Origin: Dehalococcoidia bacterium
Lineage (GTDB): Bacteria > Chloroflexota > Dehalococcoidia > Lucifugimonadales > CATOSD01
Length of the DNA stretch: 64,000 nt
Direction: 5' to 3'
Assembly: GCA_965217565.1 (NCBI GenBank)
Contig: CBDCIS010000009.1
Coordinates: 19,544 to 83,543 of the forward strand
Of the stretch, positions 4,063-38,480 are shown in pieces (positions within the stretch are counted from its first letter, which is position 1; the number at the start of each line of letters is the position of its first letter). The position numbers and the translations under genes were made by a program. The notes beneath the pieces were generated by a model. That model did not search any database. It had not been told where the DNA came from and was given only the letters and a program-made list of their open reading frames with translations.

Positions 4063-6378
4063 ATGCCGGACTATGAGCCGAACGTGGTTCTTTCTACCCA
4101 GGATTATGAGGTGGTAGGCACCAGGCCCATACGCCACGATGGTTACGAGAAGGTGACGGGACGCGCGCGCTACGCCGCCGACACTCAGATGGCGGACCTG
4201 CTGCACGCCCGACTGCTTCGCAGCCCCCACGCCCACGCGCGCATAAAGTCGATCGACGCCAGCCGAGCGCTGGCTCTGCCCGGGGTCAGGGCCGTGGTTA
4301 CCGCCGAGGACCTGCCCGAGATCTCCGCCAACGCGCGCGAAGGCTCGATGCTGAACTACGGCTTCTACAGCCGCAACGTGATGGCGCGGGAGAAGGCGCT
4401 CTACGTGGGCCATGCCGTAGCGGCGGTCGCGGCTGCCACGCCGCATATCGCGGAGGAGGCGCTGTCCCTCATAGACGTGGAGTACGAGGTCCTGCCCGCC
4501 GCGCTCAATGCCTACGACGCCCTGAAGGACGACGCGCCCATTCTACACGAGCGGCTGCTCACCATGTCCAGCCCTGCATCCCGCGCGGGAGGCTACGCCG
4601 ACGCCGATGCCGAGAAGCCCACGAACCTCGCCAACAACTTCGAGTTTCGGATGGGCGACCTCGAAAAGGGATTCGAGGACGCGGACGTAGTGGTGGAGCG
4701 GGAGTTTCACACCAAGGCCGTTCACCAGGGGTACATCGAACCCCACTCCGCGACGGCGTACTGGGGCGACGATGACTACGTGACGGTCTGGACGAGCAGC
4801 CAGGGTCACTTCCCGCTACGTGACCACACCTCGACAATCCTCGGCATACCCGTTTCAAGGGTGAAGCTGGTTCCGATGGAGATCGGCGGGGGGTTCGGAG
4901 GCAAGGGCCAGGGCGGGTGCTACCTGGAGCCTTTGGCTGCCGCTCTCTCACGCAAGACAGGCCACCCAGTGAAGCTCACGATGAGCCGCGTCGAGGTGTT
5001 CCAGGGCACCGGCCCCACGTCGGCCACGCACATTCACGTGAAGATAGGAGCCACCAGCGAGGGCAAGCTGACGGCGGCTGAGGCGCGACTCATGTACGAG
5101 GCGGGCGCGTTTCCAGGGTCGCCGGTGCCGTCGGGTTGCAGGACGATGCTTGCTCCCTACGACATCGAGAACGTCTATATCGAGGGCTACGACGTGGTGG
5201 TGAACACGCAAAAGTCGGCGGCGTATCGCGCGCCCGGCTCCCCCACCGCCGCGTTCGCGGTCGAAACGGTGGTGGACGAGATATGCGAGAAGCTGTCGAT
5301 AGACCCTATCGAGTTTCGCCTGCGAAACGCCTCCAAGGAGGGCACGAGACAGGCCGCCGGCCCCGTCTTCCTGAAGATTGGCAACGTGGAGATGCTGGAG
5401 GCCGCGAGGGAGCATCCGCACTACCAGGACCCGCTCGATGGGCCAAACCGCGGCCGCGGAGTCGCGAGCGGCGCGTGGTTCAATGGGTCGGGTCCGGCGA
5501 GCGCGGTGGCGAGCGTGAACCCCGATGGCACGGTCAGCCTCGTGGAAGGTTCGCCCGACATCGGCGGCAGCCGCGCGGCCATGGCGATGCACGTCGCGGA
5601 GGCGTTGGGGATTCCCGTTGAACTGGTCAAACCCTCGATAGTCGATACAGACTCCATCGGCTATAGCTCCGGCGCCGGGGGCAGCGGCGTAACCTTCAAG
5701 ATGGGCAGAGCGTGCTACGAGGCGGCGCAGGACATCCGGGCGCAGATGGTGGAGCGCGCCGCGCGTATCTGGGACGTGAGCGCGGACGACGTGGAGTACG
5801 AGGACGGCGCGCTGCGTCACAAGGTTGACACCGAGCTTCGAATGACGTTCAAGGAGTTGGCGGCCCAACTCAACGGCACGGGCGGCCCAATCGTGGGGCG
5901 CGCCACGGTCAACCCCGGGGGCGTGGGCAACGCCTTCGCGTTTCACATAGTGGACGTCGAGGTTGACCCTGACACGGGCAAGGTTGACATCCTGCGCTAC
6001 ACCACTGTGCAGGACGTGGGCAAGGCCATTCATCCCAGCTACGTCGAGGGGCAGATGCAAGGGGGAGCGGTTCAGGGAATCGGCTGGGCGCTGAACGAGG
6101 AGTACTACTTCAACGACGCGGGCCAGATGCTCAACTCCAGCTTCCTGGACTACCGGATGCCAACGTCGCTGGACCTTCCGATGATTGACACCGTTATCGT
6201 CGAGGTGGCGAATCCCGGGCATCCCTATGGCGTGAGAGGTGTTGGCGAGGTGTCGATAGTGCCGCCCATGGCAGCGGTAGCGAACGCGATATACGACGCC
6301 GTCGGCGTCCGCATGACGGAGCTGCCGATGTCGCCCGGGCGCGTAGTGGAGGCGCAGCTGAAGAAGGACGCCGTTTGA
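4063..6378 (+). CDS. xanthine dehydrogenase/aldehyde oxidase-family molybdopterin-binding (large) subunit
   Basis: About 770 aa with the PMEIGGGFGGKG motif and typical N-terminal hammerhead region. AGGAGG lies 7 nt upstream of ATG 4063 (the ORF track starts at GTG 4024). Confidence 0.85.
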   Translation: MPDYEPNVVLSTQDYEVVGTRPIRHDGYEKVTGRARYAADTQMADLLHARLLRSPHAHARIKSIDASRALALPGVRAVVTAEDLPEISANAREGSMLNYGFYSRNVMAREKALYVGHAVAAVAAATPHIAEEALSLIDVEYEVLPAALNAYDALKDDAPILHERLLTMSSPASRAGGYADADAEKPTNLANNFEFRMGDLEKGFEDADVVVEREFHTKAVHQGYIEPHSATAYWGDDDYVTVWTSSQGHFPLRDHTSTILGIPVSRVKLVPMEIGGGFGGKGQGGCYLEPLAAALSRKTGHPVKLTMSRVEVFQGTGPTSATHIHVKIGATSEGKLTAAEARLMYEAGAFPGSPVPSGCRTMLAPYDIENVYIEGYDVVVNTQKSAAYRAPGSPTAAFAVETVVDEICEKLSIDPIEFRLRNASKEGTRQAAGPVFLKIGNVEMLEAAREHPHYQDPLDGPNRGRGVASGAWFNGSGPASAVASVNPDGTVSLVEGSPDIGGSRAAMAMHVAEALGIPVELVKPSIVDTDSIGYSSGAGGSGVTFKMGRACYEAAQDIRAQMVERAARIWDVSADDVEYEDGALRHKVDTELRMTFKELAAQLNGTGGPIVGRATVNPGGVGNAFAFHIVDVEVDPDTGKVDILRYTTVQDVGKAIHPSYVEGQMQGGAVQGIGWALNEEYYFNDAGQMLNSSFLDYRMPTSLDLPMIDTVIVEVANPGHPYGVRGVGEVSIVPPMAAVANAIYDAVGVRMTELPMSPGRVVEAQLKKDAV

Positions 6379-6440
6379 ATAGGGGTGCAGGGAATTGGCA
6401 GGATTGGACCGCCGTCCCAACGGCTGATGGCTTGAGGTGA

Positions 6441-7268
6441 ATGATGCAGGTTACGGATCACGTCTATGTCATGCACATCGATGATGGAGGCGTTGCCCAC
6501 CCCGGTGGCAGCAACAACTACTTCGTCGGCGATCCGAACGAGGAGATGACGCTCATCGACACGGGCGAGCACCACAGGGAGTGGACCCAGAATATCCTCG
6601 ACTATTACGAAGGGCTTGGACGCCCGAAGATCAACTCAATACTGGTTACGCATGGACACCAGGACCACGTTGGTGGGGCGGACAGGGTTTACGACGTGAT
6701 GCAGTCCCCCGTGCGCTGCCATCCCAAGCTCGTTGAGCGGCTCGAAAAGATGGTCGGCCAGGGAGCGGTTACCCCCTTGAAGTCGCGGGAGCTAATCCGG
6801 ATGGGCGGAGGAGCCACTCTGCGCGCGCTGTTCACGCCGGGTCATGAGGTGGATCACGTCTGCTACTATCTGAAGGAGGACCGCGCACTGTTCACCGGGG
6901 ACACGATCCTGGGCGCGTCCTCTTCGACTGTGGGCGACCTTGCCAGCTACATGAAGTCTCTCCGGTTTCTAAAGCGATTCAAGCACGACACTATCTGTCC
7001 CGCGCATGGGCCGGTTGTGCCGCCTCCGCGAGGTGGCAAGCTCGTTCAGTGGTACATCGACCACCGCGAGGAGCGGGAGCGGCAGGTGCTCGAGGCGCTT
7101 GGGAAGGGTCTCTCCGAGGTGGAAGAGATAGCCCGCGACATCTACCCGCGCAACCTGAAGAAGGGACTCCGCCACGCCGCGGAACGCAACGTATCCACGC
7201 ACCTGGAGAAGCTGAAGAAAGAGGGCAGAGTCGCTTCGGTCGCGGTGCGGTACAGTCTGAGCGAGTAG
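6441..7268 (+). CDS. MBL-fold metallo-hydrolase
   Basis: THGHQDHVGG (HxHxDH) motif. Confidence 0.8.
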   Translation: MMQVTDHVYVMHIDDGGVAHPGGSNNYFVGDPNEEMTLIDTGEHHREWTQNILDYYEGLGRPKINSILVTHGHQDHVGGADRVYDVMQSPVRCHPKLVERLEKMVGQGAVTPLKSRELIRMGGGATLRALFTPGHEVDHVCYYLKEDRALFTGDTILGASSSTVGDLASYMKSLRFLKRFKHDTICPAHGPVVPPPRGGKLVQWYIDHREERERQVLEALGKGLSEVEEIARDIYPRNLKKGLRHAAERNVSTHLEKLKKEGRVASVAVRYSLSE

Positions 7269-20695: not shown

Positions 20696-22039
20696 GTGAC
20701 ACTCTTCGAGCACCAGGCGCGGCGCGAGCTTTCCCACAGCGCGCCGCTCGCCGCCAGGATGCGCCCCCGCACGTTCGACGAGTTCGCGGGGCAGCAGCAC
20801 ATAGTGGGCCCCGGCACCGTGCTGCGCAGGAGTATCGAATCCGACCAGTTACCCTCCATCATCCTGTGGGGGCCGCCCGGCACCGGCAAGACCACGCTGG
20901 CGAACCTCATCGCCAACCATACGAAGAGTCACTTCGAGCAGGTTAGCGGCGTCGCGTCCGGCGTGGCCGATCTTAGGCGCGTCGCGTCGGAGGCGCGGGA
21001 ACGGCTGGGCGCGCAGGGGCAGCGCACCGTGCTCTTCGTGGACGAGATTCACCGCTTCAACAAGGCTCAGCAGGACGTGATACTGCCCTATGTCGAGGAC
21101 GGCACTTTCGCGCTCGTTGGCGCGACCACGGAGAACCCTTCATTCGAGGTGGTCTCTCCCCTGCTGTCACGTGCCCGCGTCTTCGCCCTCAAGCCGCTGA
21201 CCGACGACGAGGTTGGCAGCATAGTTCGCTCCGCTATGGCCGACAACGAAAACGGGCTTGGCGATCTGAGTCCTCGCCTGGACGACGACGCATCGAAAGC
21301 CCTGGTGAATCTCGCTAATGGCGACGCGAGGGTCGCGCTGAACGCGCTGGAACTGGCCACGTCCGCAATGCAGCCCGGAGAGGATGGCGCTCGTCACATC
21401 ACGCCCGCTATCATCGAGGATGCCATGCAGCAGAGGTCGCTGCGCCACGACAAGGCGGGCGACCTGCACTACGACACCATCTCGGCGTTCATAAAGTCGG
21501 TGCGCGCCTCCGACCCCGACGCGGCGATATATTGGCTGGCGCGAATGCTGGAGGCCGGCGAAGATCCACTGTTCATAGCCCGGCGACTGGTCATCCTGGC
21601 GGCAGAGGACATCGGCATGGCGGCTCCGATGGCGCTGCCCGTGGCTGTCGCGGCGCAGCAAGCCGTCCACTTCATCGGACTGCCGGAGGGACGCATACCC
21701 CTGGCGGAGGCGACGGTCTATCTGGCTACGGCCCCAAAGAGCAACAGGGCGTACATGGCGCTCAACCGCGCGATGGAGGACGTTCAGAAGACTCGCAACG
21801 ATCCCGTGCCCCTGCACCTGCGCAACGCCGTAACCGGCCTGATGAAGGACATGGACTACGGCAAGGGCTACAGGTATGCCCACGACTACAAAGGCCACTT
21901 CACGCCGACGCAGAATCTGCCAGACAGCCTCGAGGGACGCCGCTACTACCGCGCCAGCGACCAGGGCTACGAGAAAGAGGTGGCCGAGCGCATGAAGCGC
22001 TGGTGGGGCGACGCGGAGGGAACAGCAGGCTGTGCTTGA
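20696..22039 (+). CDS. rarA: replication-associated recombination protein A (MgsA/RarA)
   Basis: Walker A GPPGTGKTTLA, FVDEIHRFNK, conserved C-terminal MgsA domain. Confidence 0.9.
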   Translation: MTLFEHQARRELSHSAPLAARMRPRTFDEFAGQQHIVGPGTVLRRSIESDQLPSIILWGPPGTGKTTLANLIANHTKSHFEQVSGVASGVADLRRVASEARERLGAQGQRTVLFVDEIHRFNKAQQDVILPYVEDGTFALVGATTENPSFEVVSPLLSRARVFALKPLTDDEVGSIVRSAMADNENGLGDLSPRLDDDASKALVNLANGDARVALNALELATSAMQPGEDGARHITPAIIEDAMQQRSLRHDKAGDLHYDTISAFIKSVRASDPDAAIYWLARMLEAGEDPLFIARRLVILAAEDIGMAAPMALPVAVAAQQAVHFIGLPEGRIPLAEATVYLATAPKSNRAYMALNRAMEDVQKTRNDPVPLHLRNAVTGLMKDMDYGKGYRYAHDYKGHFTPTQNLPDSLEGRRYYRASDQGYEKEVAERMKRWWGDAEGTAGCA

Positions 22040-24701: not shown

Positions 24702-25085
24702 CTAGCGCGGCACGGCGGCGTTTAGGGCCTGGTCGAAGGTCTTGATTCGGCTTACGCCGCGGCGACGGCAGCTTGCCAGGTGGCAGAGGTCTCGGGCGCC
24801 CAGCGCGGGATGCTGCTCGTGGAGTTGCCGCGCCAGGGTGACATCCTCCTCTTCGAGCGGCCACACCTCCACGCCGGCTCTGCTCACCAGCGACATCGCC
24901 GCGTCCAGCGTGGCAAGCCTGCCCACCGGCAGATAGGCGTGCGCCAACTCCTGCAGGACCTCAGCCGACGTGCACAGCGGCGCGCGACTCCGGTTGGACT
25001 CGATGAAGAACTCGCGAGCGGGAGCGCGCAGCGGATGCGGCGCGCCCACCGCGTACATGAAGACGTTGGTATCGACGAAAATCAC
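24702..25085 (-). CDS. vapC: PIN-domain toxin (VapC-like)
   Basis: MIFVDTNVFMY start, 127 aa, 4-nt overlap with the upstream antitoxin gene. Confidence 0.8.
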   Translation of the reverse strand: MIFVDTNVFMYAVGAPHPLRAPAREFFIESNRSRAPLCTSAEVLQELAHAYLPVGRLATLDAAMSLVSRAGVEVWPLEEEDVTLARQLHEQHPALGARDLCHLASCRRRGVSRIKTFDQALNAAVPR

Positions 25086-25357
25086 GTTCCGGCCGCGCCC
25101 CGCCGGCGCGACTCAGCCATCACGCCCAGGTGCTCGTCCCAGCCGGGTTCGCGTTCAGGGCCTGCCAGGGCGTCGCACGCCTGGAAGAACTCCTCGAGTT
25201 GCGCCGGTGACTGGAAGGGGTCGGAACGCTGCCGGTCTTCGAGGCGGTCGCGCGCGGCGGCCCTCAGCCACGCGCTGAACGTCAGTCCTTCTCTGCGCGC
25301 CTGGTGGACGAACCGGTCGCGATCTTCGTCGGGTATTACCAACTGAACCCTGGCCAT
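25082..25357 (-). CDS. vapB: antitoxin (RHH/VapB-like)
   Basis: 91 aa; ...GLTFSAWLRAAARDRL ribbon-helix-helix-like segment; ATGA overlap with vapC. Confidence 0.7.
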   Translation of the reverse strand: MARVQLVIPDEDRDRFVHQARREGLTFSAWLRAAARDRLEDRQRSDPFQSPAQLEEFFQACDALAGPEREPGWDEHLGVMAESRRRGAAGT

Positions 25358-26399: not shown

Positions 26400-26601
26400 T
26401 TCGGCAATCGAGGGATTTCCAGGATTCCACTGTCGTTGGGAGAGCTTCGATAATCCGCCTATTCTCACAATCTCAGTATCCTGACGGGTACGACGCAGTA
26501 GGAACAGAGAATTGCGATACTCACGGGCCGTCGATTTGGACACAACCAAGTAATACCAATTTGTGGTGATGCCGCCGTGTTCTCGCCTGCCGCCTTTCTG
26601 G

Positions 26602-26621
26602 ATTCCCGCTTTCGCGGGAAT
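26602..26621. repeat. REP-like palindrome, family 2 (ATTCCCGCTTTCGCGGGAAT)
   Basis: 8-bp stem with TTTC loop. The same core occurs at 37061, 37179, 46077 and, as a variant, 49391. Confidence 0.7.
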
Positions 26622-26862
26622 GACGGTAGGGGTTCTTACGACGCATACGCATTTGGATGATTCGTGGCGCAGTCAAGACGAAATGGTATAAGGTCCAGGC
26701 GGACAGATAGTTGGTTGTGCGAAATCTGCCTCCCCAATGACCGGTTCGATCCCTCTCAGATGGGCCTATTTTGACGATAGACAGAACCATCTTCGAGATG
26801 TGGCTGGTCTTGGTAGGCTCACCTAAGCCCGTTACTGGGCGATCATAACCAGGTCCACCTCA

Positions 26863-27729
26863 TTACCCGCGCGGTCTTGCGACAGCTAGAATACGATCCC
26901 TCAATTCAATCAACTCGGGAAATTCGCAGAGCTTTGCTAACCTGAAACAAAGTGATTCCTTCCGCAGACTGCCTTTAGTCTTCAATCTTAGCAATCGTAT
27001 TACCAAGGGAATCAAGATGTGCTTTCCGGAGATCCAACGAATCCGTTCAGGGTAAGATATTCCAATTCGTTGAATCATATCTTCCAAGAGGTTGTAGAAC
27101 TCTTCAGCGTCGACGGAAGTTTGTTCGCTGGCCACCCGGCCAATGTAATACTGTATCGTTGATGCGTCCGGCAAAATCGGGTCGTTTCCAATGTATTGTT
27201 CGATGGACTGAGGAAAGTGGGTTTCGCGGTCATCCAACTCTTGCAGCAAGGCAGCACACGCGGCTAGGGCGACCGAAGCTTCTACAACCTCGGAAACCCA
27301 CTGATCAAGTTTTAATAAGCCCTTGAATTCAGCTATGCTTGAGTTGGGGGACTGCTCTTGCGCGACCGTGCAGATTGCTGTTTCCTCAACCAAGTAACTT
27401 TCAATATCGTAACGTCGTAACCGATAAAAGAATGGGCTATCAGAGTATGGTTTACTGATGAGTTCGTCGAAATCTCCATCTACCACATAGAATTCTGGTT
27501 TTGCCAAGGAACCATCGCCCTGTATGGCCATTCTTGCAAGAACTTTATTCTTCCCCCCAACGCCTAGAACTCGTGTTATTGTCAGGTCCTCTTGAAATAG
27601 GCGTCTAAAGACCTCCGTGTAAAAGTACTCTTTGTCGGCGTCCTCAACAATAATGGTTATATCGTTGTAGGGACCAAAAAAGGTGGGCCTCGCCGAAAGC
27701 CCCCGGTCACTATATCTAAGCATCGGCAT
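26863..27729 (-). CDS. DUF4435-like (Toprim-type, AriB-like) protein
   Basis: 288 aa; N-terminal acidic strand DITIIVEDADKEYFY; 14-nt overlap with the end of the upstream ABC-ATPase gene. Family call is from memory of the motif pattern and gene context. Confidence 0.5.
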   Translation of the reverse strand: MPMLRYSDRGLSARPTFFGPYNDITIIVEDADKEYFYTEVFRRLFQEDLTITRVLGVGGKNKVLARMAIQGDGSLAKPEFYVVDGDFDELISKPYSDSPFFYRLRRYDIESYLVEETAICTVAQEQSPNSSIAEFKGLLKLDQWVSEVVEASVALAACAALLQELDDRETHFPQSIEQYIGNDPILPDASTIQYYIGRVASEQTSVDAEEFYNLLEDMIQRIGISYPERIRWISGKHILIPLVIRLLRLKTKGSLRKESLCFRLAKLCEFPELIELRDRILAVARPRG

Positions 27730-28275
27730 TGACCTTAGCGCTGATGTCTATGATTGCTTCCTGGGCCGCACCAGCTATCTCGGGAGAATGGGTAGCAATA
27801 ATGAACTGTGCGTTCGGGTTGGCCTCTGTGATGCTGTTAACGTAACGGTTTTGCCAAGCGACATGCAGGGACAACTCCGGCTCATCCACAAACACGGCAA
27901 ACTCTTGCTCGGTGTCGAACTGGAAACATAGGAACGTGAACAATACAAGCAGTTGGAGTTCTCCTGAAGACAAGAGGTGGCTACTGATACGCTGGCCATT
28001 GGGGAGGTCAACCATAAGCTCGAACCCACGCACTAGCCTCAGCCGCTTCCTGTTGTCACTGAGAAAGCTGTTGACCGACTCCAAAAACTTGTTGGATCGA
28101 CGGATTACCTTGGACCGATCCGATTCATACTTCTGTATCATCGGGATCAACCGCTCGATACGGGAAGCTATAGAGGATGCATCAAATATCCAATCTAACC
28201 ACTTGCTGGCATTGGGGTCTTCAGCGAAATTCTCCGGAATCGTCTGACCTCCTAACTGGTCGACGACATCTCTAA
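27716..28275 (-). pseudogene. ABC-type ATPase (AriA-like), fragment 4 of 4 (C-terminal)
   Basis: Frame open up to the IS junction. Contains signature LSSGELQ, Walker B FVDEPELSLH, H-loop IATHSPE. Confidence 0.8.
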
Positions 28276-29126
28276 GAGGGTGTGTGAGAAGTTCAAATTA
28301 GGTTGGTGCTAAGCGTCGGAGCATGAGATGAATCATAGCTATATGGGTCCACGCCTCGGTTGTATCGGACAGAGCTTCGTAGTCCTTGCTCATCCGACGG
28401 CACCTGCTGAGCCACGCGAATGTTCGTTCGACCACCCATCTTCGCGGCAGCACTTGAAAACGGTGGCTGTCCCTGGGGCGCTTGACAATCTCGAGTGCCC
28501 AGCCTGTCAGGGCCCAGACCCACTCGACCAGCTTTCCAGCATAGCCAGCATCGGCCCAGACCAACCTCATGCGGGGAAACCTCCCTATCAATTTATCGAT
28601 GACCAGCTTCGCCCCATCCCTATCCTGGATATTGGCAGGATGCACCACCACCGCCAGCAGCAACCCCATGGTATCTACAATGATATGTCGCTTTCGACCG
28701 TTGACCTTCTTGCCAGCGTCATAGCCACGAGGCCCCCTTTTTCCGTAGTCTTGACCGACTGGGGCTGTCTATGATAGCAGCGCTAGGTGTCGGGTTCCTC
28801 CCCTCGGCCTGCCGGACCTTGACTCGGAGAGCGTCATTGGCTCGTTCCCATGTACCATCCTCTCTCCACTCCCGAAAATACCACCATACAGTACCCCAAG
28901 GCGGGAGGTCATGCGGCATGGCTCGCCACGTGCAACCGTTGCGCAGAACGTATAGAATGCCGTTGACGACTTCCCGCAGGTCTACAGTACGTGGCCTTCC
29001 CCCAGTTTTGGCTGCCGGGAGTAGCGGAGCGAGCATCTTCCACTGTTCATCAGTCAGGTCACTGGGGTATGCTTTGCGTTTCATGCCTCCATTCTAATAC
29101 ATATCCAAGACTTCTCACACACCCTC
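28276..29126 (-). mobile_element. IS5-A, copy 2, inverted relative to copy 1
   Basis: Same 17-bp inverted repeats and identical ORF translations (orfA 28719-29084, orfB 28298-28768). Flanks are TAA (28273-28275) and TTA (29127-29129). Confidence 0.9.
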
Positions 29127-29538
29127 TTAGGCGACGAAAGTAATCCTCACTGAGGTTCCGAGCATTACTTAACCCCAAGTTTCCTAACGCCGTTCCGACT
29201 CTAGTGCGCCGCTCTTCGAGCTCTGATCGAGTCCAAACTCGTGAGGCAAGTTCTGATCCTTCTTGTTCGAACAACGAGGCAAAAATATTATTGCGCAATT
29301 CATCGTTTAAAGACGACACTTCGAATTGTTCCTGGCGAAACACACGTTCCGCCAAAGTCAACACTTGTGATATCGGTAGATATCCTGCCGCAGTCGAACG
29401 CCTAGAACGTTGACGGTAACGAGATTCTCGGTCTTCCGTCCATCGGCGGTTTAAGGGTAAGTACAGAGGGCCGGGCAACTCGCTCAAATGGCGAAGTACG
29501 GTATTATTTCTTCGGTCCTCCAAGAACCTTGAAACTAA
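29127..29538 (-). pseudogene. ABC-type ATPase (AriA-like), fragment 3 of 4
   Basis: VSRFLEDRRNN...SEDYFRRL, lying between the IS630-family and IS5-A insertions. Confidence 0.7.
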
Positions 29539-30705
29539 TACCATTTCATGTTGACGAGGCCGCATAGTGTGCCGGAAGACTTCGCGTTGTGTGTTCGATC
29601 CAACTCCACGCCGTGAGCGACCGCACCCGACCCGGATCAGATTCAAGCTCACTCAGGTAGGCGTCAACCGCCTTCATCTTCTCCTCTATGCTCCCGTATA
29701 TCCTGCCCTCCACCCACCTGCGGACCTCTTGGAAGACCCGCTCAGCGGGATTCAGCTCAGGACTATATGCAGGCTGCACGATCGTTGCCACTCCAACAGT
29801 CCGTACTATCTCACCCCGGTGACCACGCGCTCCATCCCACACCAGGGCCTCGATGTCCGAGTGATGCTTCAGGCCATCGACTGCCACCGCTATAGCCGCA
29901 GACTTCATCGAATCGATCCAACCCCACAACAGCTTGCCCCTCCGAACGTCTACCACCAGGAACAGGTACATCCACTTGTAGACCATCTGCACTCGCTGAT
30001 GCACCTTCACTCCACGACGACCCCACACCCTACGCACCATCCCCCGCAGGCCCACTCGCATCTCATCGGCAAAGCCAAAGGCCGTCTCAGAACTCACGCC
30101 CGCTTCGGCAAGGCAACAACCAAGCCCCCCTTTTTCCACGACTCCTGCGCAGCTACGTCTGCCTTCTCATGACGGCCCCTCGGGACCTTCGGGCTGCATC
30201 CCAACCTCTCAAGCAGACCATAGACGCTGCCCGACTTGTAGCTCACCCCATACTCGGACTCTATCCAGTCCCTGATCTCTCCCGCCGTTCTGAACCGTCC
30301 CGTCGACACCTCCTCGGTCAACTCCTGCTCTTCATCTGTGCTCAGAAAGCGCGGTTTGCCCATGCCTCCCATCTTGTGGGACAACACTCCTTCCACACCT
30401 CCCTCTCTATACCAGCCCACCCACGTCTGTACCGTCCGGTAGTGGACTCCCACCGCTCTTGCCGCCTCACCGAACTGCCATCCCGACCGCACCAGCCACA
30501 GTCCATGGAGTCGAGTACGAAGGCTAGTGTCACGTTCTGCCCGGTAGGCCGCCTTCAGCGCCTCCGGTGTATCCTCCCCATGCCAATCTATTCGAAGCGG
30601 TCGTCCGATCATCTGATACCCTCCAACACTGTATGTCGGCTAGAGCATGGATGAACTATTAGGACATCGCTAGATACTTCCAGGTCTTGTTATCATCAAA
30701 TGGTA
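29539..30705 (-). mobile_element. IS630-family element (IS630-A), 1167 bp
   Basis: Ends are TACCATTTCATG (29539-) and CATCAAATGGTA (-30705). Direct TAA at 29536-29538 and 30706-30708. orfA (30094-30612) is an HTH part; orfB (29546-30139) is a DDE part with LNPAERVF. orfB lies in the -1 frame at an A5G6 run (30125-30135). Confidence 0.85.
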
Positions 30706-31020
30706 TAAGTCGGATGGTTCCTCAACGACACGGGCCGCACTAAAGTGGGTCAGTTCCGGCCTGCTTACGATAGGTATTTCCAATGGGTCATCTATGCCTT
30801 TGACTCTTATCGTTACGGCGTCCTCAGCGCGCTTCGCCGTGACTCTTTGAAATTTTCGCTCCCCAGAGTTGGTATACGCGATGTTGATTTCATCGAACTC
30901 GATACCAGAAAGGAGGTAGGCTGCTGGGATTCCGTCCTGCACGGATGCCGGTGACAGCGCCCAAGCCATCGCATTCAGGATAGATGTCTTACCTGAACCG
31001 TTCACCCCGATGAGGATGTT
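30706..31020 (-). pseudogene. ABC-type ATPase (AriA-like), fragment 2 of 4 (Walker A)
   Basis: NILIGVNGSGKTSILNAMAWAL...EEPSDL; bounded by the IS3 left end and the IS630-A right end. Confidence 0.8.
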
Positions 31021-32348
31021 TGAGGTGGACCCAGAAAACTGGACAGGTGGCTAAGTGAGAGTCCTGCTCCTAAACTAAGGGCAGCTGTTGCTGTCTGGAA
31101 GGAGAAGGACATGGCGCAAGGAAGAAGGAAGCACAGCCCGGCCTTCAAGGCCAGGGTGGCCCTGGATGCGGTGAAGGGGGAGGAGACAGTGGCCCAGTTG
31201 GCCGCCCGGTACGAAGTCCACCCGGGCCAGATTCAAGCCTGGAAGAAGGTCCTGACCGGGGGTGCCGCCGGTGTGTTCGGTAACGGTCAGGACCACAAGG
31301 CCAAGAGGACGCTGCCTTGGTCGCCCGGTTGTACCAGGAGATCGGCCAGTTGAAGGTGGAGCGGGATTTCTTGGCGGAGAGGTCCGGTCCATGAACCCGG
31401 CCCGGCGGCGGGAGATGGTGGACCGGGAGCATCCCTCGTTGCCGATAGTGGGACAATGCGCCCTGCTGGGGGTGAGCCGCTCCAGCATATACTACCGTCC
31501 CAAGGGGGCTTCGGAAGAGGAGCTGTCGCTGATGCGGGAGATAGACCGGCAGTAGAAGGCGACCCCCTTCTATGGGTCGCGGCGGATGAAGGTCTGGCTG
31601 GAGCGGCAGGGTATAGTGGTGAGCCGGAAGCGGGTGCAGCGGCTGATGCGTGTCATGGGACTGCGGGCCATCTACCGGCGACCTCGTACCAGCCAACCGG
31701 CGCCGGGAGTGCGGGTCTATCCCTATCTGTTGGGGAAGGCCGAAATCACCAGACCCAACCAGGTGTGGGCCTCAGACATCACCTACCTGCCCATGGCCCG
31801 GGGATTCCTCTACCTGGTGGCCGTCATGGACTGGCACAGCCGGTATGTCCTGTCCTGGCGCCTGTCCAACACTCTGGAGGCAGGCTTTTGCGCCGAGGCC
31901 CTGACAGAGGCGCTGGAGAGGGGAAGGCCGGAGGTGTTCAACACTGACCAGGGGAGCCAGTTCACCAGTCAGGAATTCACCCAGGTCCTTCAGGACCGCG
32001 GTGTGAAGATCAGCATGGACGGGAAGGGAGGTACCAAGACAACATCTTCGTCGAGCGGCTGTGGCGCACGGTGAAGTACGAGGAGGTGTACCTGAAAGCC
32101 TACGCCAGCGCGGGGGAGGCCCGGAGGGAACTGGGAGCTTACTTCCGGTTCTACAATGACCAGAGGCCCCATCAGGCCTTGGGATACAAGACACCCGGGG
32201 AAGTGTTCTCTGAAGACACGGCGCCCCAAAATGAAGAGTCAGCAGCTGAGAGGTGGTCGCCGGAAGCAGACGTGGTATCTTATGCGGGAGCTGCGGGACC
32301 CTCACTTAGCTCCACCTTAATTCTGTCCAACTAGTCGGGTCCACCTCA
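31021..32348 (+). mobile_element. IS3-family element, copy A (degenerate)
   Basis: TGAGGTGGACCC...GGGTCCACCTCA ends. Relative to copy B it has single-nt deletions near 31076, 31306 and 32037 that break orfA and orfB. It shares the in-frame TAG at 31553-31555. Confidence 0.85.
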
Positions 32349-32684
32349 CACCACGCGGGTGCTCTTGCGCCGCAGCATGGACTTGAAGGCGACGGCGTGC
32401 TCGCGCTTTCTGGTGAAGCGGCTGAACTTCCAGACGAGAATCACGTCGAAGGGAGCCTTCGGCTTGCTGCCCTCCTCGATCATCTCCCTGAACTGGGGCC
32501 TGTCGGCGACGCGGCCGCTCTCGGCCTCGTCCACGTACTCGCGGGCCACGGAATAGCCGTTGGCCCTGGCGTAGTCCTTGAGCGCCCGCAACTGGGCGGA
32601 CACGGACAGGTCCACGTCCTGCCGGTCGCTGGACACCCTAGCGTTGAGAGCCGCCTGGGTAAGGGGTTGTACGTGCTTCTTCAT
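32349..32684 (-). pseudogene. serine recombinase, N-terminal resolvase-domain stub cut by IS3 copy A
   Basis: ALNARVSSDRQ catalytic-serine motif; the ORF stop is supplied by the IS terminus. Confidence 0.7.
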
Positions 32685-32725
32685 ATCTTTCTCCCTTGCG
32701 ATGGTTTGTACTGGTGCGGGCTGCT

Positions 32726-33052
32726 CTACTCTTGGGTGGAATAGGCGACGGGGTGGACTTGGAGCCGGAAGCCCAGCACACGCAGCACCCTGAGCACGGT
32801 GTTGAACTCTGGGCTGGCGCCGGCTCGCATAGATTTATAGAGGCTCTCGCGGCCCAGGCCGGTCTCGTGGGCCACCCGTCTCATGCGGTGCGCGCGGGTC
32901 ATTCCCCCCAGGGTGCCCATGATGCGGTTCAGATCGCCCGCTTCCAGGGCCATGTTCAAGGCAGTGGTCATGTCCTCTGCGGTCGCCGGGTATGTCGCTG
33001 GTGTTTCTTTGCTGTCCATCGCCGATTTCACACCGTCGTGAGTTTCGCCCAT
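32726..33052 (-). CDS. HigA-type addiction-module antidote (HTH) protein, no adjacent toxin gene
   Basis: ...MTRAHRMRRVAHETGLGRESLYKSMRAGASPEFNTVLRVLRVLGFRLQV matches the pattern of the antidote family normally found downstream of a RelE/HigB-type killer gene. Confidence 0.6.
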   Translation of the reverse strand: MGETHDGVKSAMDSKETPATYPATAEDMTTALNMALEAGDLNRIMGTLGGMTRAHRMRRVAHETGLGRESLYKSMRAGASPEFNTVLRVLRVLGFRLQVHPVAYSTQE

Positions 33053-33377
33053 ACCCAGCTATAGTATCTGGTTGGATACCTAGTACGTAAGGGGCAACTG
33101 CCAGTCTGAAGCGGAGGGACGAATACTGTGAAAGAACCTCTGTAACACAACCCAACTAGGTGATTGCAAAGATTCAGCGGGAACCTTACCATATGACACA
33201 CAGGCACAGTTCACAGGAACACAGGAGGGGCTTCCTTTCATTCTCGGGCGATTGCGGACCAGTGGGATACAGGGACCACCGCTGTCCGCCAACATAGTCC
33301 GCCCCAAGAAAAACAACCGGCGAGCGATGAGTACAAGGGGAAGCGTTATACCGAAGGCATTACTCAATCACTCTTGT

Positions 33378-33386
33378 TGATATAAT
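33378..33386 (+). promoter_or_regulatory. extended -10 element TGATATAAT
   Basis: TGnTATAAT 31 nt upstream of GTG 33417. Confidence 0.35.
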
Positions 33387-33416
33387 TCGCTCTTCGATTG
33401 CACTAAGGAAGAACAG

Positions 33417-34574
33417 GTGAACGCTATGCATGAAATAAGACGGGTCGGGATAGATGGATTCAGGCGACTACGCGATGTTTCAATTGATATGCGACCGATG
33501 ATGGTAATGGTCGGGGCTAATGGTTGTGGCAAAACATCGTTCATGGACGCTTTGTCGTTACTTGCCTCCTCTGCAGAAGGGGGATTAAATCGACGGCTCA
33601 ATGACATGGGAGGTGCTTCCGAGGCTACTACCCGGGGGCGACACCAGGATATGTCGTTCAGCGCTGATATGGAAGTTCCAGACCATAATCCGCTCAAGTA
33701 CAGTATGAGTATCGCCGCGCAGGGCCATACTTATTCTGTGTCACAAGAATCGCTCACGCAAACCAGACCTGGCTATTCGCAGCCGTTCAAACACATCGAA
33801 TCTACTTATCGAGATATTCGGTACTTCGACACTGAAGAGGGACGTCTCCTCAGACCAAATTGGCAGTTCAATTACTTCGAGTCCTCTCTCTCGCAAGTCC
33901 CAAAGCTGTTCAGGGAAGCGGAGGAATTGAGACGCTCCCTCAGTGCGGTCACCCAGTACCATGTTCTCGACGTGGGAATACGTGCCCCAGTAAAACTACC
34001 TCAGCAATTGCGACCGGTTGATCTCCCAGGTGAAAACGGCGAGAACTTGGTGTCGTTCCTCTTTAATATTCGTGAAACAAACTCCGATAAATACGAGGCA
34101 ATAGAGGATACTTTACGCGTAGCTTATCCAGGCTTTGATTCCCTCAATTTTCCGATAGCGGCCGCTGGGATGATGTCAATGACCTGGAAAGAAAAGGCAT
34201 TTCGGAGTCCCATTTACATTCATCAACTTTCAGAAGGGACGTTACGGTTTCTCTGGTTGATTTCTCTTCTACAGAGTCCAGGCCTTACAACAGTTACTAT
34301 GATAGATGAGCCAGAGGTAAGCCTACATCCCGAATTGCTGGCGATACTCGCAGAGCTAATGCGTGAAGCGTCGCGCAAAACCCAGATAATTGTGGCTACA
34401 CACTCTGACCGCCTAATCCGCTTCCTTGAGACGAAAGAAGTGGTTGTCATGGACATAAAGGAAGATGGAGAGACATCCATGACTTGGGCCGACACGTTGG
34501 ATCTGGATGCGTGGTTGGCAGACTACACCCTGGACGAGGTATGGCAGATGGGAAGAATGGGAGCCAGGGCATGA
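33417..34574 (+). CDS. ABC-type (AAA_15/AAA_21-like) ATPase
   Basis: Walker A GANGCGKTS, LSEGTLR signature-like motif, Walker B MIDEPEVSLHP, VATHSD H-loop. Confidence 0.8.
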   Translation: MNAMHEIRRVGIDGFRRLRDVSIDMRPMMVMVGANGCGKTSFMDALSLLASSAEGGLNRRLNDMGGASEATTRGRHQDMSFSADMEVPDHNPLKYSMSIAAQGHTYSVSQESLTQTRPGYSQPFKHIESTYRDIRYFDTEEGRLLRPNWQFNYFESSLSQVPKLFREAEELRRSLSAVTQYHVLDVGIRAPVKLPQQLRPVDLPGENGENLVSFLFNIRETNSDKYEAIEDTLRVAYPGFDSLNFPIAAAGMMSMTWKEKAFRSPIYIHQLSEGTLRFLWLISLLQSPGLTTVTMIDEPEVSLHPELLAILAELMREASRKTQIIVATHSDRLIRFLETKEVVVMDIKEDGETSMTWADTLDLDAWLADYTLDEVWQMGRMGARA

Positions 34575-35185
34575 AGATAACCTTGATGGTTGAGGGTAAG
34601 ACCGAGAGGGCTTTCCTCCCGCACTTGAGAAATCACCTCCAGCAACAACTGGCTGGAAGGATGCCCAACCTGGACCCGGCCCCGTATCATGGACGAATCC
34701 CTACAGGCGAAAAGCTCGCGAGGACGGTACAGAGATTATTGTCGGGTCGCTACGCTTCAGACCACGTAATAGCTCTGACCGATGTTTACACTGGGATGAC
34801 TCCCGGCGACTTTCTTGATGCAGCGGACGCCAAATCTAAGGTGCGTCAATGGGTTGGTAACGAACCGAGATTCCATCCTCATGCAGCTCAGTACGATTTT
34901 GAAGCGTGGCTACTTCCATATTGGTCTCGAATCCAACAACTAGCAGGTCACAACCGAACAAGACCTAGTGGCTCCCCTGAACAAGTTAACCACACTAACC
35001 CTCCTTCTTATCACATCAGACAAATCTTCCGAAACGGCAGTTGCCGCGACGACTATGTAAAACCCAGAGACGCTGGTCGTATTTTGCGAGAGCAAGACTT
35101 ATCATTAGCAATAAACCAGTGTAGTGAACTAAAAGCCTTAATTGACTCAATCCTGAGAGTTTGCAATGGTATAGCGACACCCTGA
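34571..35185 (+). CDS. DUF4276-like (Toprim-like) protein
   Basis: 204 aa, N terminus MKITLMVEGKTERAFL; ATGA start/stop overlap with the ATPase gene. Family call is from motif pattern, size and the recurrent ATPase neighbourhood. Confidence 0.5.
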   Translation: MKITLMVEGKTERAFLPHLRNHLQQQLAGRMPNLDPAPYHGRIPTGEKLARTVQRLLSGRYASDHVIALTDVYTGMTPGDFLDAADAKSKVRQWVGNEPRFHPHAAQYDFEAWLLPYWSRIQQLAGHNRTRPSGSPEQVNHTNPPSYHIRQIFRNGSCRDDYVKPRDAGRILREQDLSLAINQCSELKALIDSILRVCNGIATP

Positions 35186-35515
35186 GTGGGTTCCGTTTGC
35201 TCACTGCTGGTGGCCATTTTAGGCCCATTCTTGGTAAATCCAATCGGCCCACATCTTCTAAGCGGGCCCCTCAAGGTTAGTGTACCCTCGATGCCCTGAG
35301 AAGGCTAACAGGCTGCCCGGTCGCCCCTCAAAGATGGTTCTGCCTCCGTCCCGACGCGTCACGCTACGGGAATCGCGAGTCCTCGGTGTGTTGACAGGCT
35401 GCCCAGCCACAGCTCGAAGATGGTGGAATCTACCGTACGCGGTGGTGGGCTTATGGGGTAGCACACACATGAGCGCCCCTATGGGAACCTGCTGGATTGT
35501 AAAGGGCGGAGTGAT

Positions 35516-36846
35516 TGAGGTGGACCGAGAAAACTGGACAGGTGGCTAAGTGAGAGTCCTGCTCCTAAACTTAAGGGCAGCTGTTGCTGTCTGGAAGGAG
35601 AAGGACATGGCGCAAGGAAGAAGGAAGCACAGCCCGGCCTTCAAGGCCAGGGTGGCCCTGGATGCGGTGAAGGGGGAGGAGACAGTGGCCCAGCTGGCCG
35701 CCCGGTACGAAGTCCACCCGGGCCAGATTCAAGCCTGGAAGAAGGTCCTGACCGGGGGTGCCGCCGGTGTGTTCGGTAATGGTCAGGACCACAAGGCCAA
35801 GAGCGACGCTGCCTTGGTCGCCCGGTTGTACCAGGAGATCGGCCAGTTGAAGGTGGAGCTGGATTTCTTGGCGGAGAGGTCCGGTCCATGAACCCGGCCC
35901 GGCGGCGGGAGATGGTGGACCGGGAGCATCCCTCGTTGCCGATAGTGGGGCAATGCGCCCTGTTGGGGGTGAGCCGCTCCAGCATATACTACCGTCCCAA
36001 GGGGGCTTCGGAAGAGGAGCTGTCGCTGATGCGGGAGATAGACCGGCAGTAGAAGGCGACCCCCTTCTATGGGTCGCGGCGGATGAAGGTCTGGCTGGAG
36101 CGGCAGGGTATAGTGGTGAGCCGGAAGCGGGTGCAGCGGCTGATGCGTGTCATGGGACTGCGGGCCATCTACCGGCGACCTCGTACCAGCCAACCGGCGC
36201 CGGGAGTGCGGGTCTATCCCTATCTGTTGGGGAAGGCCGAAATCACCAGACCCAACCAGGTGTGGGCCGCCGACATCACCTACCTGCCCATGGCCCGGGG
36301 ATTCCTCTACCTGGTGGCCGTCATGGACTGGCACAGCCGGTATGTCCTGTCCTGGCGCCTGTCCAACACTCTGGAGGCAGGCTTTTGCGCCGAGGCTCTG
36401 ACGGAGGCGCTGGAGAGGGGAAGGCCGGAGGTGTTCAACACTGACCAGGGGAGCCAGTTCACCAGTCAGGAATTCACCCAGGTCCTTCAGGACCGCGGTG
36501 TGAAGATCAGCATGGACGGGAAGGGGAGGTACCAAGACAACATCTTCGTCGAGCGGCTGTGGCGCACGGTGAAGTACGAGGAGGTGTACCTGAAAGCCTA
36601 CGCCAGCGCGGGGGAGGCCCGGAGGGAACTGGGAGCTTACTTCCGGTTCTACAATGACCAGAGGCCCCATCAGGCCTTGGGATACAAGACACCCGGGGAA
36701 GTGTTCTCTGAAGGCACGGCGCCCCAAAATGAAGGGTCAGCAGCTGAGAGGTGGTCGCCGGAAGCAGACGTGGTATCTTATGCGGGAGCTGCGGGACCCT
36801 CACTTAGCTCCACCTTAATTCTGTCCAACTAGTCGGGTCCACCTCA
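35516..36846 (+). mobile_element. IS3-family element, copy B
   Basis: TGAGGTGGACCG...GGGTCCACCTCA ends. orfA is 35607-35891. orfB is in the -1 frame from ATG 35888 to 36832 but carries an in-frame TAG at 36050-36052. Confidence 0.85.
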
Positions 36847-37007: not shown

Positions 37008-37128
37008 CTAGTACCATTTCCAGATGTATTTGATAATATCTCGGCTGCCTTCCACACTGGATTCCCGCTTTCGCGGGAAAGACGGATAGTATTCGATGCC
37101 TGTCATCTTCAAGTAGAAACGGTACTAG
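37008..37128. mobile_element. MITE copy a (~121 bp)
   Basis: Terminal inverted repeats CTAGTACCATTTCCAG / ...GAAACGGTACTAG; internal family-2 REP palindrome at 37061-37080. Confidence 0.7.
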
Positions 37129-37245
37129 TACCGTTTCCAGCTAGTTTTGACAATAATCGAGGCTGTCCTCGACTCTGGATTCCCGCTTTCGCGGGAATGA
37201 CGGTCACTGTTCAGTATTTGTCACTTTCAAGTGGAAACGGTACTA
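37125..37245. mobile_element. MITE copy b, abutting copy a
   Basis: CTAGTACCGTTTCCAG...GGAAACGGTACTA; shares the CTAG at 37125-37128 with copy a; its distal CTAG is split by IS630-B. Confidence 0.7.
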
Positions 37246-38480
37246 GTGGTTCAACTTTTTTGTATTGATGGGTAGAGTGACTTTAGCTTGATGCGCGCAT
37301 CCTCGGTAGTGAAGCGCCAATCCACTCGTATAACATCCCGGTTGCGTTGATTCTGCCAAGCATTGACCTCGCCGCGCAGGATGTCTTGATTGGCAATCCG
37401 TCGGTCCAGGCACTGTCGAGCCAGCACACCGATCTCTATCTCCGCCATATTCAACCAACTCCCGTGTTTGGGAGTGTAGTGTATCTCCAGTCGCTCAGCT
37501 ATACGCCTCGCCTCAGCAGGCTCGAATGCCTCGTATAGCGAGGACAGCTTGTGAGTGTTGAGATTGTCCATTACCAGCACGATCCGGTCTCTGTCAGGGT
37601 AGTCCTCGTCGACCAGTTTCTTTATCACATGCGCCCAGTCCACCTTCGTGCGGCGCTCTCTGAGCTCGACTCGGCGCCATCCGTCCAACGGTGCAAACAG
37701 CATGAACAGGCTGCTCACTCCATTGCGCTCGTATTCGTAGTCGTATGCCGCCGATAAGCCGGGCGCTGTGGGACGCGGCACTCGCGTCTCCTTGACTTGC
37801 TGTTTGCTCGTCTCATCCATGCACACCAGAACCTCATTCCCATCGTACGGCCGTTGGTAGACCTCCAGTACGTCTTCCATCGCGCACACAAACTCCGCGC
37901 TCTGACCGGGCGGGATGCACCAACTCTGCTTCAGCCACGGCTTCAGCTCGTTTTTTTAAGCGCCTGGCGAACCGTCTCGGCGCTAATGGTCTCGACTATC
38001 TCACACTCGACCAACTCGTCAGCCAACAGCTTCAGGGTCCAACTGGCACGCCCCTCCGGCGGTTCCCTGCAGGCCATCGCTATCAACCGTGCTTCACCTT
38101 CGCCGTCCAGTCTCTTTTGACGCCGACGCAGTTGCTTTTTGCGATTCAGCGCAGACTCGACCCCCTCCTCCACACAGCGCTTGCGTATTCGCTCGACCGT
38201 TGACTGTCCCACACCGAGCGCGCTGGTGATGTCCGCGTCCTTCATTCCCCCGTCCGAGCGTGACTCATCGCTCATCAGCAGAATGCGCGCATGGGTCTGT
38301 TTGTACGCCGCAGACCGACCGCGTGAGACCAAGCCGTTGAGTTCCTGTTGTTCGTCGGTAGTCAGTCTGATACGGTACTTCTTGGTAGACATCATGGTTC
38401 CTCCTCGGTTCAACGTTACGATTGAACCCCCAAGAGCAACAATGACTATCATGGTCTTCATTTCAATGATGTTGGACCAC
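37246..38480 (-). mobile_element. IS630-family element (IS630-B), 1235 bp
   Basis: Inverted repeats GTGGTTCAAC / GTTGGACCAC. TA duplication inside a CTAG target (37244-37245, 38481-38482). orfA is 37943-38461; orfB is 37251-37889 in the -1 frame at A AAA AAA (T7 at 37951-37957). Confidence 0.85.

Follow-up and report, generated by a model that had tools for sequence, protein, structure and literature searches.

The 64,000-nucleotide (nt) stretch analysed here, referred to below as the window, comes from contig CBDCIS010000009.1 of a Dehalococcoidia bacterium (assembly GCA_965217565.1, positions 19,544 to 83,543). Two overlapping plus-strand genes at window positions 33417 to 35185 raise the question of whether they form an anti-phage system and, if so, how their products might act together. 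The upstream gene (gene A, 33417–34574) encodes an ATP-binding cassette (ABC)/SMC-type ATPase, and the downstream gene (gene B, 34571–35185) a DUF4276 protein of 204 amino acids (aa) with a predicted Toprim fold, presumed to be a nuclease effector. An initial annotation had described the pair as an intact module and a poorly characterised defence candidate; both its observation and its core interpretation were correct. Profile searches place the pair in HEC-01, a catalogued family of candidate anti-phage systems, and we consider it probable, with a good deal of room for doubt, that the pair is a stand-alone, horizontally mobile HEC-01 two-gene system that acts like a split OLD nuclease.

The assignment to HEC-01 is carried by near-complete profile matches of both proteins in PADLOC. 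The best of the 164 PADLOC matches of protein A was the HEC-01A model PDLC04175 (1.8e-70, 235.8 bits), which aligned residues 5–384 of A with profile positions 4–361 of 363; weaker matches were seen to AriA (6e-33), mad3 (5e-28), AbiLi (4e-25) and PtuA. Protein B matched HEC-01B models only, the best being PDLC04188 (2.4e-11), with B residues 2–196 aligned to profile positions 14–225 of 230. In PADLOC, HEC-01 comprises at least ten A models and at least five B models, and the experimentally tested representatives may lie outside the tight 382/204-aa clade of the window pair. The family, whose name stands for "Hma-embedded candidate 01", was described as an ABC ATPase encoded with a TOPRIM protein (Payne, Hughes, Fineran & Jackson, bioRxiv 2024, 10.1101/2024.01.29.577857); the same study predicted an OLD-like metal site for HEC-01. 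Such pairs are known from outside Hma systems too. The window pair shares with HEC-01 the full-length best matches of A and B and the adjacent genes for an ABC ATPase and a separate TOPRIM protein; however, unlike the Hma-embedded originals, it lies outside Hma, as cargo of a decayed serine-recombinase element. In cold-seep microbial genomes, HEC-01 has been reported as one of the 12 candidate defence types of highest abundance (PMC12881386), a further study presents DUF4276 as a newly recognised Toprim family and the Mad4 homologue (PMC12065111), and MADS3-4 has been grouped with the ABC-ATPase/TOPRIM systems (PMC11464382). The family, the folds and the candidate role of the pair are already published, and the annotation result is in itself routine. 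The description as a poorly characterised defence candidate therefore stands as far as candidacy is concerned, but the pair is not uncharted, since HEC-01 is catalogued and has been tested twice, with opposite outcomes, and DUF4276 is a published Toprim family.

Protein A is, on the basis of Pfam and fold matches, a compact ABC/SMC-type ATPase whose catalytic motifs are all intact. Pfam searches returned AAA_21 (5e-35), AAA_15 (7e-23) and SMC_N (2e-12). The AlphaFold2 model, with 109 homologues in the alignment, had a pLDDT (predicted local distance difference test) score of 88 and displayed a secondary structure without a long coiled coil; its closest Foldseek matches among solved folds were PtuA ATPases (from Septu and retron I-A), the heads of Rad50 and SMC proteins, and the Thermus (Ts) OLD nuclease. 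The ABC ATPase proposed in the initial annotation is borne out by the AAA_21 and AAA_15 matches and by this PtuA/Rad50/SMC-like predicted fold, and every motif that had been quoted was found at its expected place: the Walker A GANGCGKTS (aa 33–41 in the 385-aa numbering, 33513–33539), the signature-like LSEGTLR (aa 271–277, 34227–34247), the Walker B/D-loop MIDEPEVSLHP (aa 295–305, 34299–34331) and the H-loop VATHSD (aa 326–331, 34392–34409). The Q-loop region lies at 33888–33902. The Walker A, Q-loop, signature, Walker B and H-loop columns are invariant or nearly so in the family, and all of them are intact in A; the Walker A lysine K39 and the Walker B glutamate E299 (385-aa numbering) are candidates for mutation.

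Protein B, which begins MKITLMVEGKTERAFL, matched Pfam DUF4276 (PF14103) at 5.2e-27 and 95.8 bits against a cut-off of 30.2, over B residues 7–194 and profile positions 1–191 of 192, and this near-complete coverage upholds the DUF4276 assignment made earlier. The AlphaFold2 model (pLDDT 90.1, predicted template modelling score 0.87) consists of four beta-alpha units (strands at residues 2–8, 33–39, 65–71 and 101–106, and helices at 9–27, 46–57, 84–95 and 110–125) followed by a helical C-terminal part. When the model was compared with the PDB by Foldseek, the top matches were C-terminal Toprim regions of OLD proteins from Xanthomonas and Burkholderia: 6NJX and 6NK8 at a probability of 1.0 and template modelling (TM) scores of 0.47–0.54 or, with 6NJW included, 0.98–1.0 and 0.45–0.54. 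Gabija GajA ranked sixth. The Toprim-like character suggested by the initial annotation is thus supported by structure prediction, and the modelled four-stranded parallel beta-alpha core with an invariant glutamate (E8) ending strand 1 is a feature of the Toprim superfamily. Residues E8, T70, D71, H104, D109, E111, K164 and R166 are invariant in the family and E12 is nearly so (conserved in at least 90% of sequences). In the model, T70-D71 end strand 3, H104, D109 and E111 are in the region of the fourth strand, with D109 and E111 after it, and K164 and R166 are in the helical part. We take this invariant set, as placed in the model, to resemble the acidic two-metal site and lysine of OLD nucleases, and E8, D71 and K164 are candidates for mutation. 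The Pfam profile OLD-like_TOPRIM (PF20469) scored 14.2 bits on B, below its cut-off of 23.2, and a PDB sequence search with the B profile returned nothing significant (best E-value 0.62), so B is linked to OLD by fold comparison only. Profile and model together identify B as a member of DUF4276 whose predicted Toprim fold is OLD-like.

In the list of open reading frames (ORFs) of the window, both genes are intact, and the module of 385-aa and 204-aa ORFs with a 4-nt overlap was confirmed exactly as first described. The genes are translationally coupled by an ATGA in which A stops and B starts (34571–34574, plus strand; the junction reads GC-ATG-A). Gene A encodes 385 aa from the GTG at 33417 and 382 aa from an ATG at 33426; because most of the best 120 A homologues are 382–383 aa long with an N-terminus of the form MHE..., the ATG at 33426 is at least as likely to be the start. 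The TGnTATAAT element that the initial annotation had reported 31 nt upstream is present, as the extended -10-like sequence TGATATAAT at 33378–33386 on the plus strand, 31 nt 5' of the GTG at 33417, and the pattern TGNTATAAT occurs twice in the 64-kb window against 0.25 occurrences expected. However, a scan for two-hexamer sigma-70 promoters (-35/-10 consensus) found none for the pair, and a TGnTAnAAT match was found upstream in only 3 of 75 homologous loci, as was plain TATAAT. The element is therefore at best a weak local promoter candidate, and a conserved promoter was rejected. Rfam searches returned no RNA family in 32300–35600.

The spread of the pair was assessed by counting homologues in a collection of 5.8 billion proteins and by fetching 80 loci from one-genome-per-species contigs, of which 75 full-length pairs were used for overlap counts. 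The collection held 3,691 homologues of B and at least 3,453 of A, with almost invariant lengths, and the 80 loci, at 55–70% identity, came from more than a dozen phyla, among them Chloroflexota, Nitrospirota, Acidobacteriota, Desulfobacterota, Planctomycetota, Cyanobacteriota, Omnitrophota, Synergistota, Spirochaetota, Myxococcota, Nitrospinota, Fibrobacterota and Latescibacterota. An exhaustive phmmer search of 1.84 billion representatives of 50% identity clusters returned no more than 369 B relatives; in the 150 best of these no B fused to an ATPase was seen, the longest being 290 aa, and by sequence the B relatives form one tight clade. An A homologue was directly upstream of B in every one of the 80 loci, and the two genes overlapped by 4 nt in 71 of the 75 pairs and by 1 nt in three, so that the split ATPase/Toprim layout noted at the outset is strictly conserved. 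The correlation between A and B identities across the homologous loci was only 0.46. Ratios of nonsynonymous to synonymous substitution rates (dN/dS), measured against relatives at three distances, were 0.04–0.18 for A and 0.06–0.33 for B; both genes are under purifying selection. With the Pfam matches and the thousands of homologues, these ratios (0.04–0.33) mark the pair as real genes, not chance ORFs. The uniformity of the clade across phyla and the strict 4-nt coupling are new here.

A third conserved gene was sought and rejected, as the 840 flanking ORFs of the 80 loci cluster into generic families only (kinases, ABC transporters, GGT and the like). Defence genes were a minority of the neighbours, with single matches to BrxL and to a type I methyltransferase; these statements on neighbours are qualitative, because the scan counted matches per family and not per neighbour. 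In two loci, an Omnitrophota metagenome-assembled genome (MAG; L020) and a Desulfomonilaceae MAG (L034), the pair lies directly upstream of a BREX pglZ gene (PADLOC PglZ, E = 0; L020 10695–13229 and L034 10599–13211) and appears to be embedded in BREX loci. A gene of about 1,370 aa lies upstream of the pair in both of these loci and is shared with L012. In L080, the pair adjoins an SspH/mad8-like protein. A locus with an 83%-identical pair (L162, 8762–16099) carries beside it a 1,795-aa DUF4011/AAA_11/AAA_12/MTES_1575 helicase-nuclease (PADLOC PDC-S37, Hhe-like) and a HEPN_LA2681 protein, a context that resembles a defence island.

Several known systems pair an ABC ATPase with a nuclease, and the window pair was compared with each of them. 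PARIS, which consists of the AriA ABC ATPase and the AriB DUF4435 Toprim tRNase, has the same split two-gene layout, and A matched AriA as given above; however, B is a DUF4276 protein without a DUF4435 or AriB match, A has only 382 aa and no long coiled coil, and searches of IMG/VR viral contigs, PLSDB plasmids and GenBank phages turned up no copies of the pair on phages, satellites or plasmids. An hhalign comparison of the B profile with the AriB-like protein encoded in the window was not significant (probability 0.3), with the first-strand motif alone aligned. In Septu and retron I-A (PtuA-PtuB) and in AbiL, an ATPase is likewise paired with a small nuclease, and the fold of A is closest to PtuA; PtuB, however, is an HNH nuclease and AbiLii an RloB-type Toprim protein, and B matches neither. 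The proposal of a PARIS- or AbiL-like layout with a different small partner is in agreement with these results, B being DUF4276 and showing no AriB/DUF4435, RloB or AbiLii match. Among the OLD proteins (Class 1, P2 and Vibrio; Class 2, GajA), the C-terminal Toprim regions are matched by the fold of B and the Ts OLD ATPase by that of A, and an ABC ATPase sensor is likewise combined with a Toprim effector, but OLD and GajA are single polypeptides, whereas the window domains are encoded by separate genes and the OLD-like_TOPRIM profile stays below threshold. OLD members also differ in substrate, which is tRNA for P2 OLD. The Mad3-Mad4 proteins of MADS from Pseudomonas aeruginosa have the same AAA_15/21 ABC ATPase and DUF4276 Toprim domains; however, A scored 89.9 bits against the cut-off of 420 for NCBIfam MAD3 (NF047739), B had no match to the mad4 model, and the ORFs within a few kb of the pair included no mandatory mad6-8 or methyltransferase genes. 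Identity as a MADS module was rejected on these grounds.

By analogy with these systems, an ATPase-gated Toprim nuclease is the likely mechanism of the pair; the steps given here were drawn from PARIS, P2 OLD, Gabija, Septu and the MADS Mad3-Mad4 proteins. Protein A would form ATP-dependent head-to-head dimers or higher oligomers that keep B inactive. A cue from a phage or other mobile genetic element, which might be a protein or an aberrant nucleic-acid structure, would shift the ATPase state of A, and B would thereby be freed or activated. The acidic Toprim site of B (E8, E12, D71 and D109/E111, with K164) would then carry out metal-dependent phosphodiester cleavage, and this cleavage would stop phage propagation. 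In Septu and Gabija the nuclease is gated by nucleotide state; Gabija cleaves DNA, and DNA nicking is reported for a class 1 OLD of Vibrio. In PARIS, AriA sequesters AriB and releases this Toprim nuclease when triggered (PMC11464382), and in P2 OLD, destabilisation of a tetramer opens the Toprim site, the triggers being single-stranded DNA hairpins and the substrate that is cut being tRNA (bioRxiv 10.64898/2026.07.10.737580). In MADS, deletion of either mad3 or mad4 lowers defence, each gene being needed, and mad5 could be deleted only along with mad2 or mad3, which the authors of that work read as lethality of a lone mad5 deletion; because mad5 deletion needs this co-deletion, we see a hint that Mad3 is involved in a self-damaging activity. 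As the closest folds to B are the C-terminal regions of OLD proteins, and given the MADS genetics, which hint that the activity is directed at DNA, DNA would be slightly favoured over tRNA as the substrate of B. The intact and well-delimited cassette that carries the pair is a reasonable substrate for the questions of DNA versus tRNA cleavage and of the ATPase cue of DUF4276 effectors.

Natural variants fit a gated effector. In five loci (L024, L066, L073, L163 and L014), A is truncated, internally deleted or frameshifted, and in all five the B ORF is intact and its conserved acidic residues are kept. Because B is intact where A is damaged, a lone B seems to be tolerated, which suggests that its product has no toxicity of its own, although B may be silenced once it is no longer translationally coupled. 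These variants, in which A is lost and B is intact, are also new here.

A role in immunity is supported by the BREX-embedded copies, by the defence neighbours in L080 and L162, and by the PARIS-like neighbour of the pair in the window. A HEC-01 picked at random from the cold-seep dataset is reported to protect E. coli B from one or more of the phages T4, T5 and T7 (PMC12881386). Several observations weigh against a split-OLD defence system. The protection by the cold-seep HEC-01 was given without quantitative detail (PMC12881386), and a HEC-01 representative gave no protection against the BASEL and classic coliphages; in addition, most of the shortlisted candidates in the set from which the HEC systems came were not enriched near defence systems (10.1101/2024.01.29.577857). 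The 245 nearest neighbours in the homologous loci were mainly housekeeping genes (tRNA synthetases, SecA, IMPDH, GGT, kinases and transporters). The invariant family motif after strand 3 of B reads T70-D71-x-Y73-x-G75, with a single aspartate in place of a literal Toprim DxD, and the further invariant acidic residues D109 and E111 come after strand 4. Lastly, mean column identity is 74–76% across phyla over the whole length, and such high and uniform conservation would be unusual for a sensor that has to keep pace with evolving phage proteins.

The last point leads to a variant of the mechanism that we put forward as speculation and regard as rather improbable, namely that the clade is a split "OLD-sentinel" whose ATPase senses a universal nucleic-acid structure (replication hairpins or DNA ends) or nucleotide depletion, with B as a gated tRNase or DNA nickase. 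This would explain both function and retention in very different hosts. Its basis is the uniformity of 382 and 204 aa, the 55–70% identity across phyla, the 369 representatives, the solitary housekeeping settings, and the lack of phage or plasmid copies in the collections that were searched, namely IMG/VR viral contigs (with two peptide patterns only), PLSDB plasmids and GenBank phages, which are biased to cultured hosts. A nucleic-acid or nucleotide cue would also fit the near-uniform conservation of A, inserts included, better than a fast-evolving phage protein would. Such sensing logic, if true, would be new for the HEC-01/DUF4276 branch.

Solitary occurrence invites a different reading as well, in which the pair is a selfish addiction or stabilisation module, with B as the toxin, A as its controller and phage protection incidental, in the manner of toxin-antitoxin or restriction-modification systems. 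In most genomes the cassette stands alone and self-contained amid housekeeping genes, it has spread horizontally over many phyla at 55–70% identity, it is carried on integrative elements with antitoxin-type and PIN genes nearby, and one phage-defence test of HEC-01 was negative. The five loci with a damaged A and an intact B speak against a toxin that needs its controller, with the caveat that uncoupling may silence B; moreover, the BREX-embedded copies and the positive HEC-01 plaque assay point to immunity, and no relatives were found on PLSDB plasmids. An addiction module is, on this evidence, unlikely. The BREX-embedded copies bear at the same time on the idea that the pair is the detached effector part of a larger system based on methylation (of the MADS, BREX or Hma type) and inert alone in the host genome: BREX pglZ directly follows the homologous pair in L020 and L034, HEC-01 was first found embedded in Hma systems, A has its mad3 match in PADLOC, and the same domain pair in Mad3-Mad4 works only inside the eight-gene MADS. 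However, A falls far below the MAD3 cut-off and B is without a mad4 match, no methyltransferase, BREX or Hma genes are present near the window pair or beside most of the 80 loci, and the stand-alone copies are still under purifying selection, all of which makes an inert remnant quite unlikely.

A housekeeping function in DNA repair, with the pair working like RecF (an ABC-like ATPase) and RecR (a Toprim protein) or like SbcCD, would suit the resemblance of the A fold to Rad50 and SMC heads, the weak RecF and SMC_N matches at the N-terminus of A, the strong conservation and the mostly housekeeping neighbours. The RecF match, however, is limited to the P-loop region and reaches 30.7 bits against a cut-off of 172, the pair is distributed patchily, through horizontal transfer, the genes have decayed in several genomes, and the copy in the window has a foreign composition, carriage on an integrative element and insertion sequence (IS) flanks. 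A repair role is accordingly very improbable. A mobile, stand-alone HEC-01 system with a gated OLD-like nuclease remains the reading that we prefer, and the surroundings of the pair in the window bear on its mobility.

In the window the pair is low-GC DNA of foreign origin, carried as cargo by a serine-recombinase element that has decayed. The rarA gene (20696–22036) of the host, a Dehalococcoidia bacterium, is up to 82% identical to Dehalococcoidia MAG genes. The pair has a GC content of 50% and a third-codon-position GC content (GC3) of 0.47–0.51, against 61–62% GC in the flanking genome and a GC3 of 0.82 for the host rarA. Around the pair, a low-GC, IS-ridden island extends from about 25.4 to 38.5 kb. 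Two direct IS3-family copies, 99% identical overall and 94–99% in the individual direct repeats between them, bracket a 3.2-kb segment that holds a recombinase remnant, an antitoxin gene and the HEC-01 pair. Copy 1 (31018–32351, plus strand) has small indels relative to copy 2, a split orfB and a terminal inverted repeat; copy 2 (35512–36846, plus strand, in direct orientation) has an orfB with Pfam rve, rve_3 and HTH_21. No target-site duplications were found at the IS3 copies, either singly or jointly, so a clean composite transposon was rejected, and the absence of duplications argues for IS-mediated rearrangement of a remnant, not a freshly moved transposon. An ARAGORN scan of the window returned no tRNA gene as a possible marker of an integration site.

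Between IS3 copy 1 and the pair lie the 112-aa N-terminal remnant of a large serine recombinase (32346–32684, minus strand; Pfam Resolvase 1.3e-19), ended by the right end of the IS3 copy, and an orphan HI1420-type (HigA-like helix-turn-helix, HTH) antitoxin gene (32726–33052, minus strand; Pfam dnstrm_HI1420 4.9e-22) that is divergent from the pair. There is no space for a partner toxin gene beside the HI1420-type gene, which might regulate either the pair or the element. The order recombinase (in full, 487 aa), antitoxin, A and B recurs in four metagenomic contigs (L164–L167), with B 81% identical and the antitoxin gene at 6285–6662. DNA homology to these contigs covers window positions 32350–33113 and 33412–35164, and the former segment is 80% identical to L164 5907–6671. 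The closest relative of the pair, on another metagenomic contig with proteins 96–97% identical, shares only window positions 33155–35274, at 96.8% DNA identity, and its cassette has a tyrosine integrase, AlpA and an IS4 transposase as neighbours. This shared 2.1-kb plus-strand cassette, which consists of a 5' leader, both genes and an 89-nt tail, is found in different contexts and therefore appears to move between carrier elements. Cassette-like movement between integrative elements and the decayed serine-recombinase context are new here, and the designation of the pair as mobile cargo is well supported by the GC content of 50% against about 62%, by the IS3 bracketing and by the shared recombinase/HI1420/pair synteny. 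The accompanying claim of a defence island holds only in part: one other defence system, an IS-destroyed PARIS-like one, and toxin-antitoxin genes are present but nothing more, and the neighbours in other genomes are mostly housekeeping genes.

The PARIS-like system in ruins (26863–31017, minus strand) lies upstream of the pair and is disrupted by insertion sequences. Its AriB/DUF4435 gene (26863–27729, minus strand) is an intact 288-aa ORF. AriA is represented by a C-terminal piece (27716–28150, minus strand; PADLOC AriA 4e-27), a possible middle piece without a family match (29059–29652, minus strand) and an N-terminal Walker A piece (30670–31017, minus strand) whose 5' end was cut by IS3 copy 1. 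Between these pieces are an IS5-like element (28298–29084) and an IS630-like element (29546–30612), the latter a more degraded second copy of the IS630-family element that marks the right edge of the island (37251–38461, minus strand, with an HTH ORF at 37943–38461 and a DDE_3 ORF at 37251–37889).

The island is bounded on the left by a probable VapBC pair (24702–25357), made up of a VapC-like toxin gene with a PIN domain (24702–25085, minus strand; Pfam PIN 2e-18) and a small ORF upstream of it (25082–25357, minus strand) that overlaps it by 4 nt, beyond which come metabolic genes; on the right it is bounded by Usp and MFS genes. A repeat with the palindromic core GGATTCCCGCTTTCGCGGGAA is present by the AriB gene (26597–26627, 31 nt) and just past IS3 copy 2, where two tandem 92-nt copies (37038–37129 and 37156–37247) are 79% identical; it could be a hairpin repeat flanking the island core and resembling repetitive extragenic palindromic (REP) sequences or miniature inverted-repeat transposable elements (MITEs). 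In addition, a 34-nt inverted repeat (26774–26807 and 35403–35436, 82% complementary, 8.6 kb apart) surrounds the stretch from AriB to HEC-01, and could be due to chance or represent the ends of an older element.

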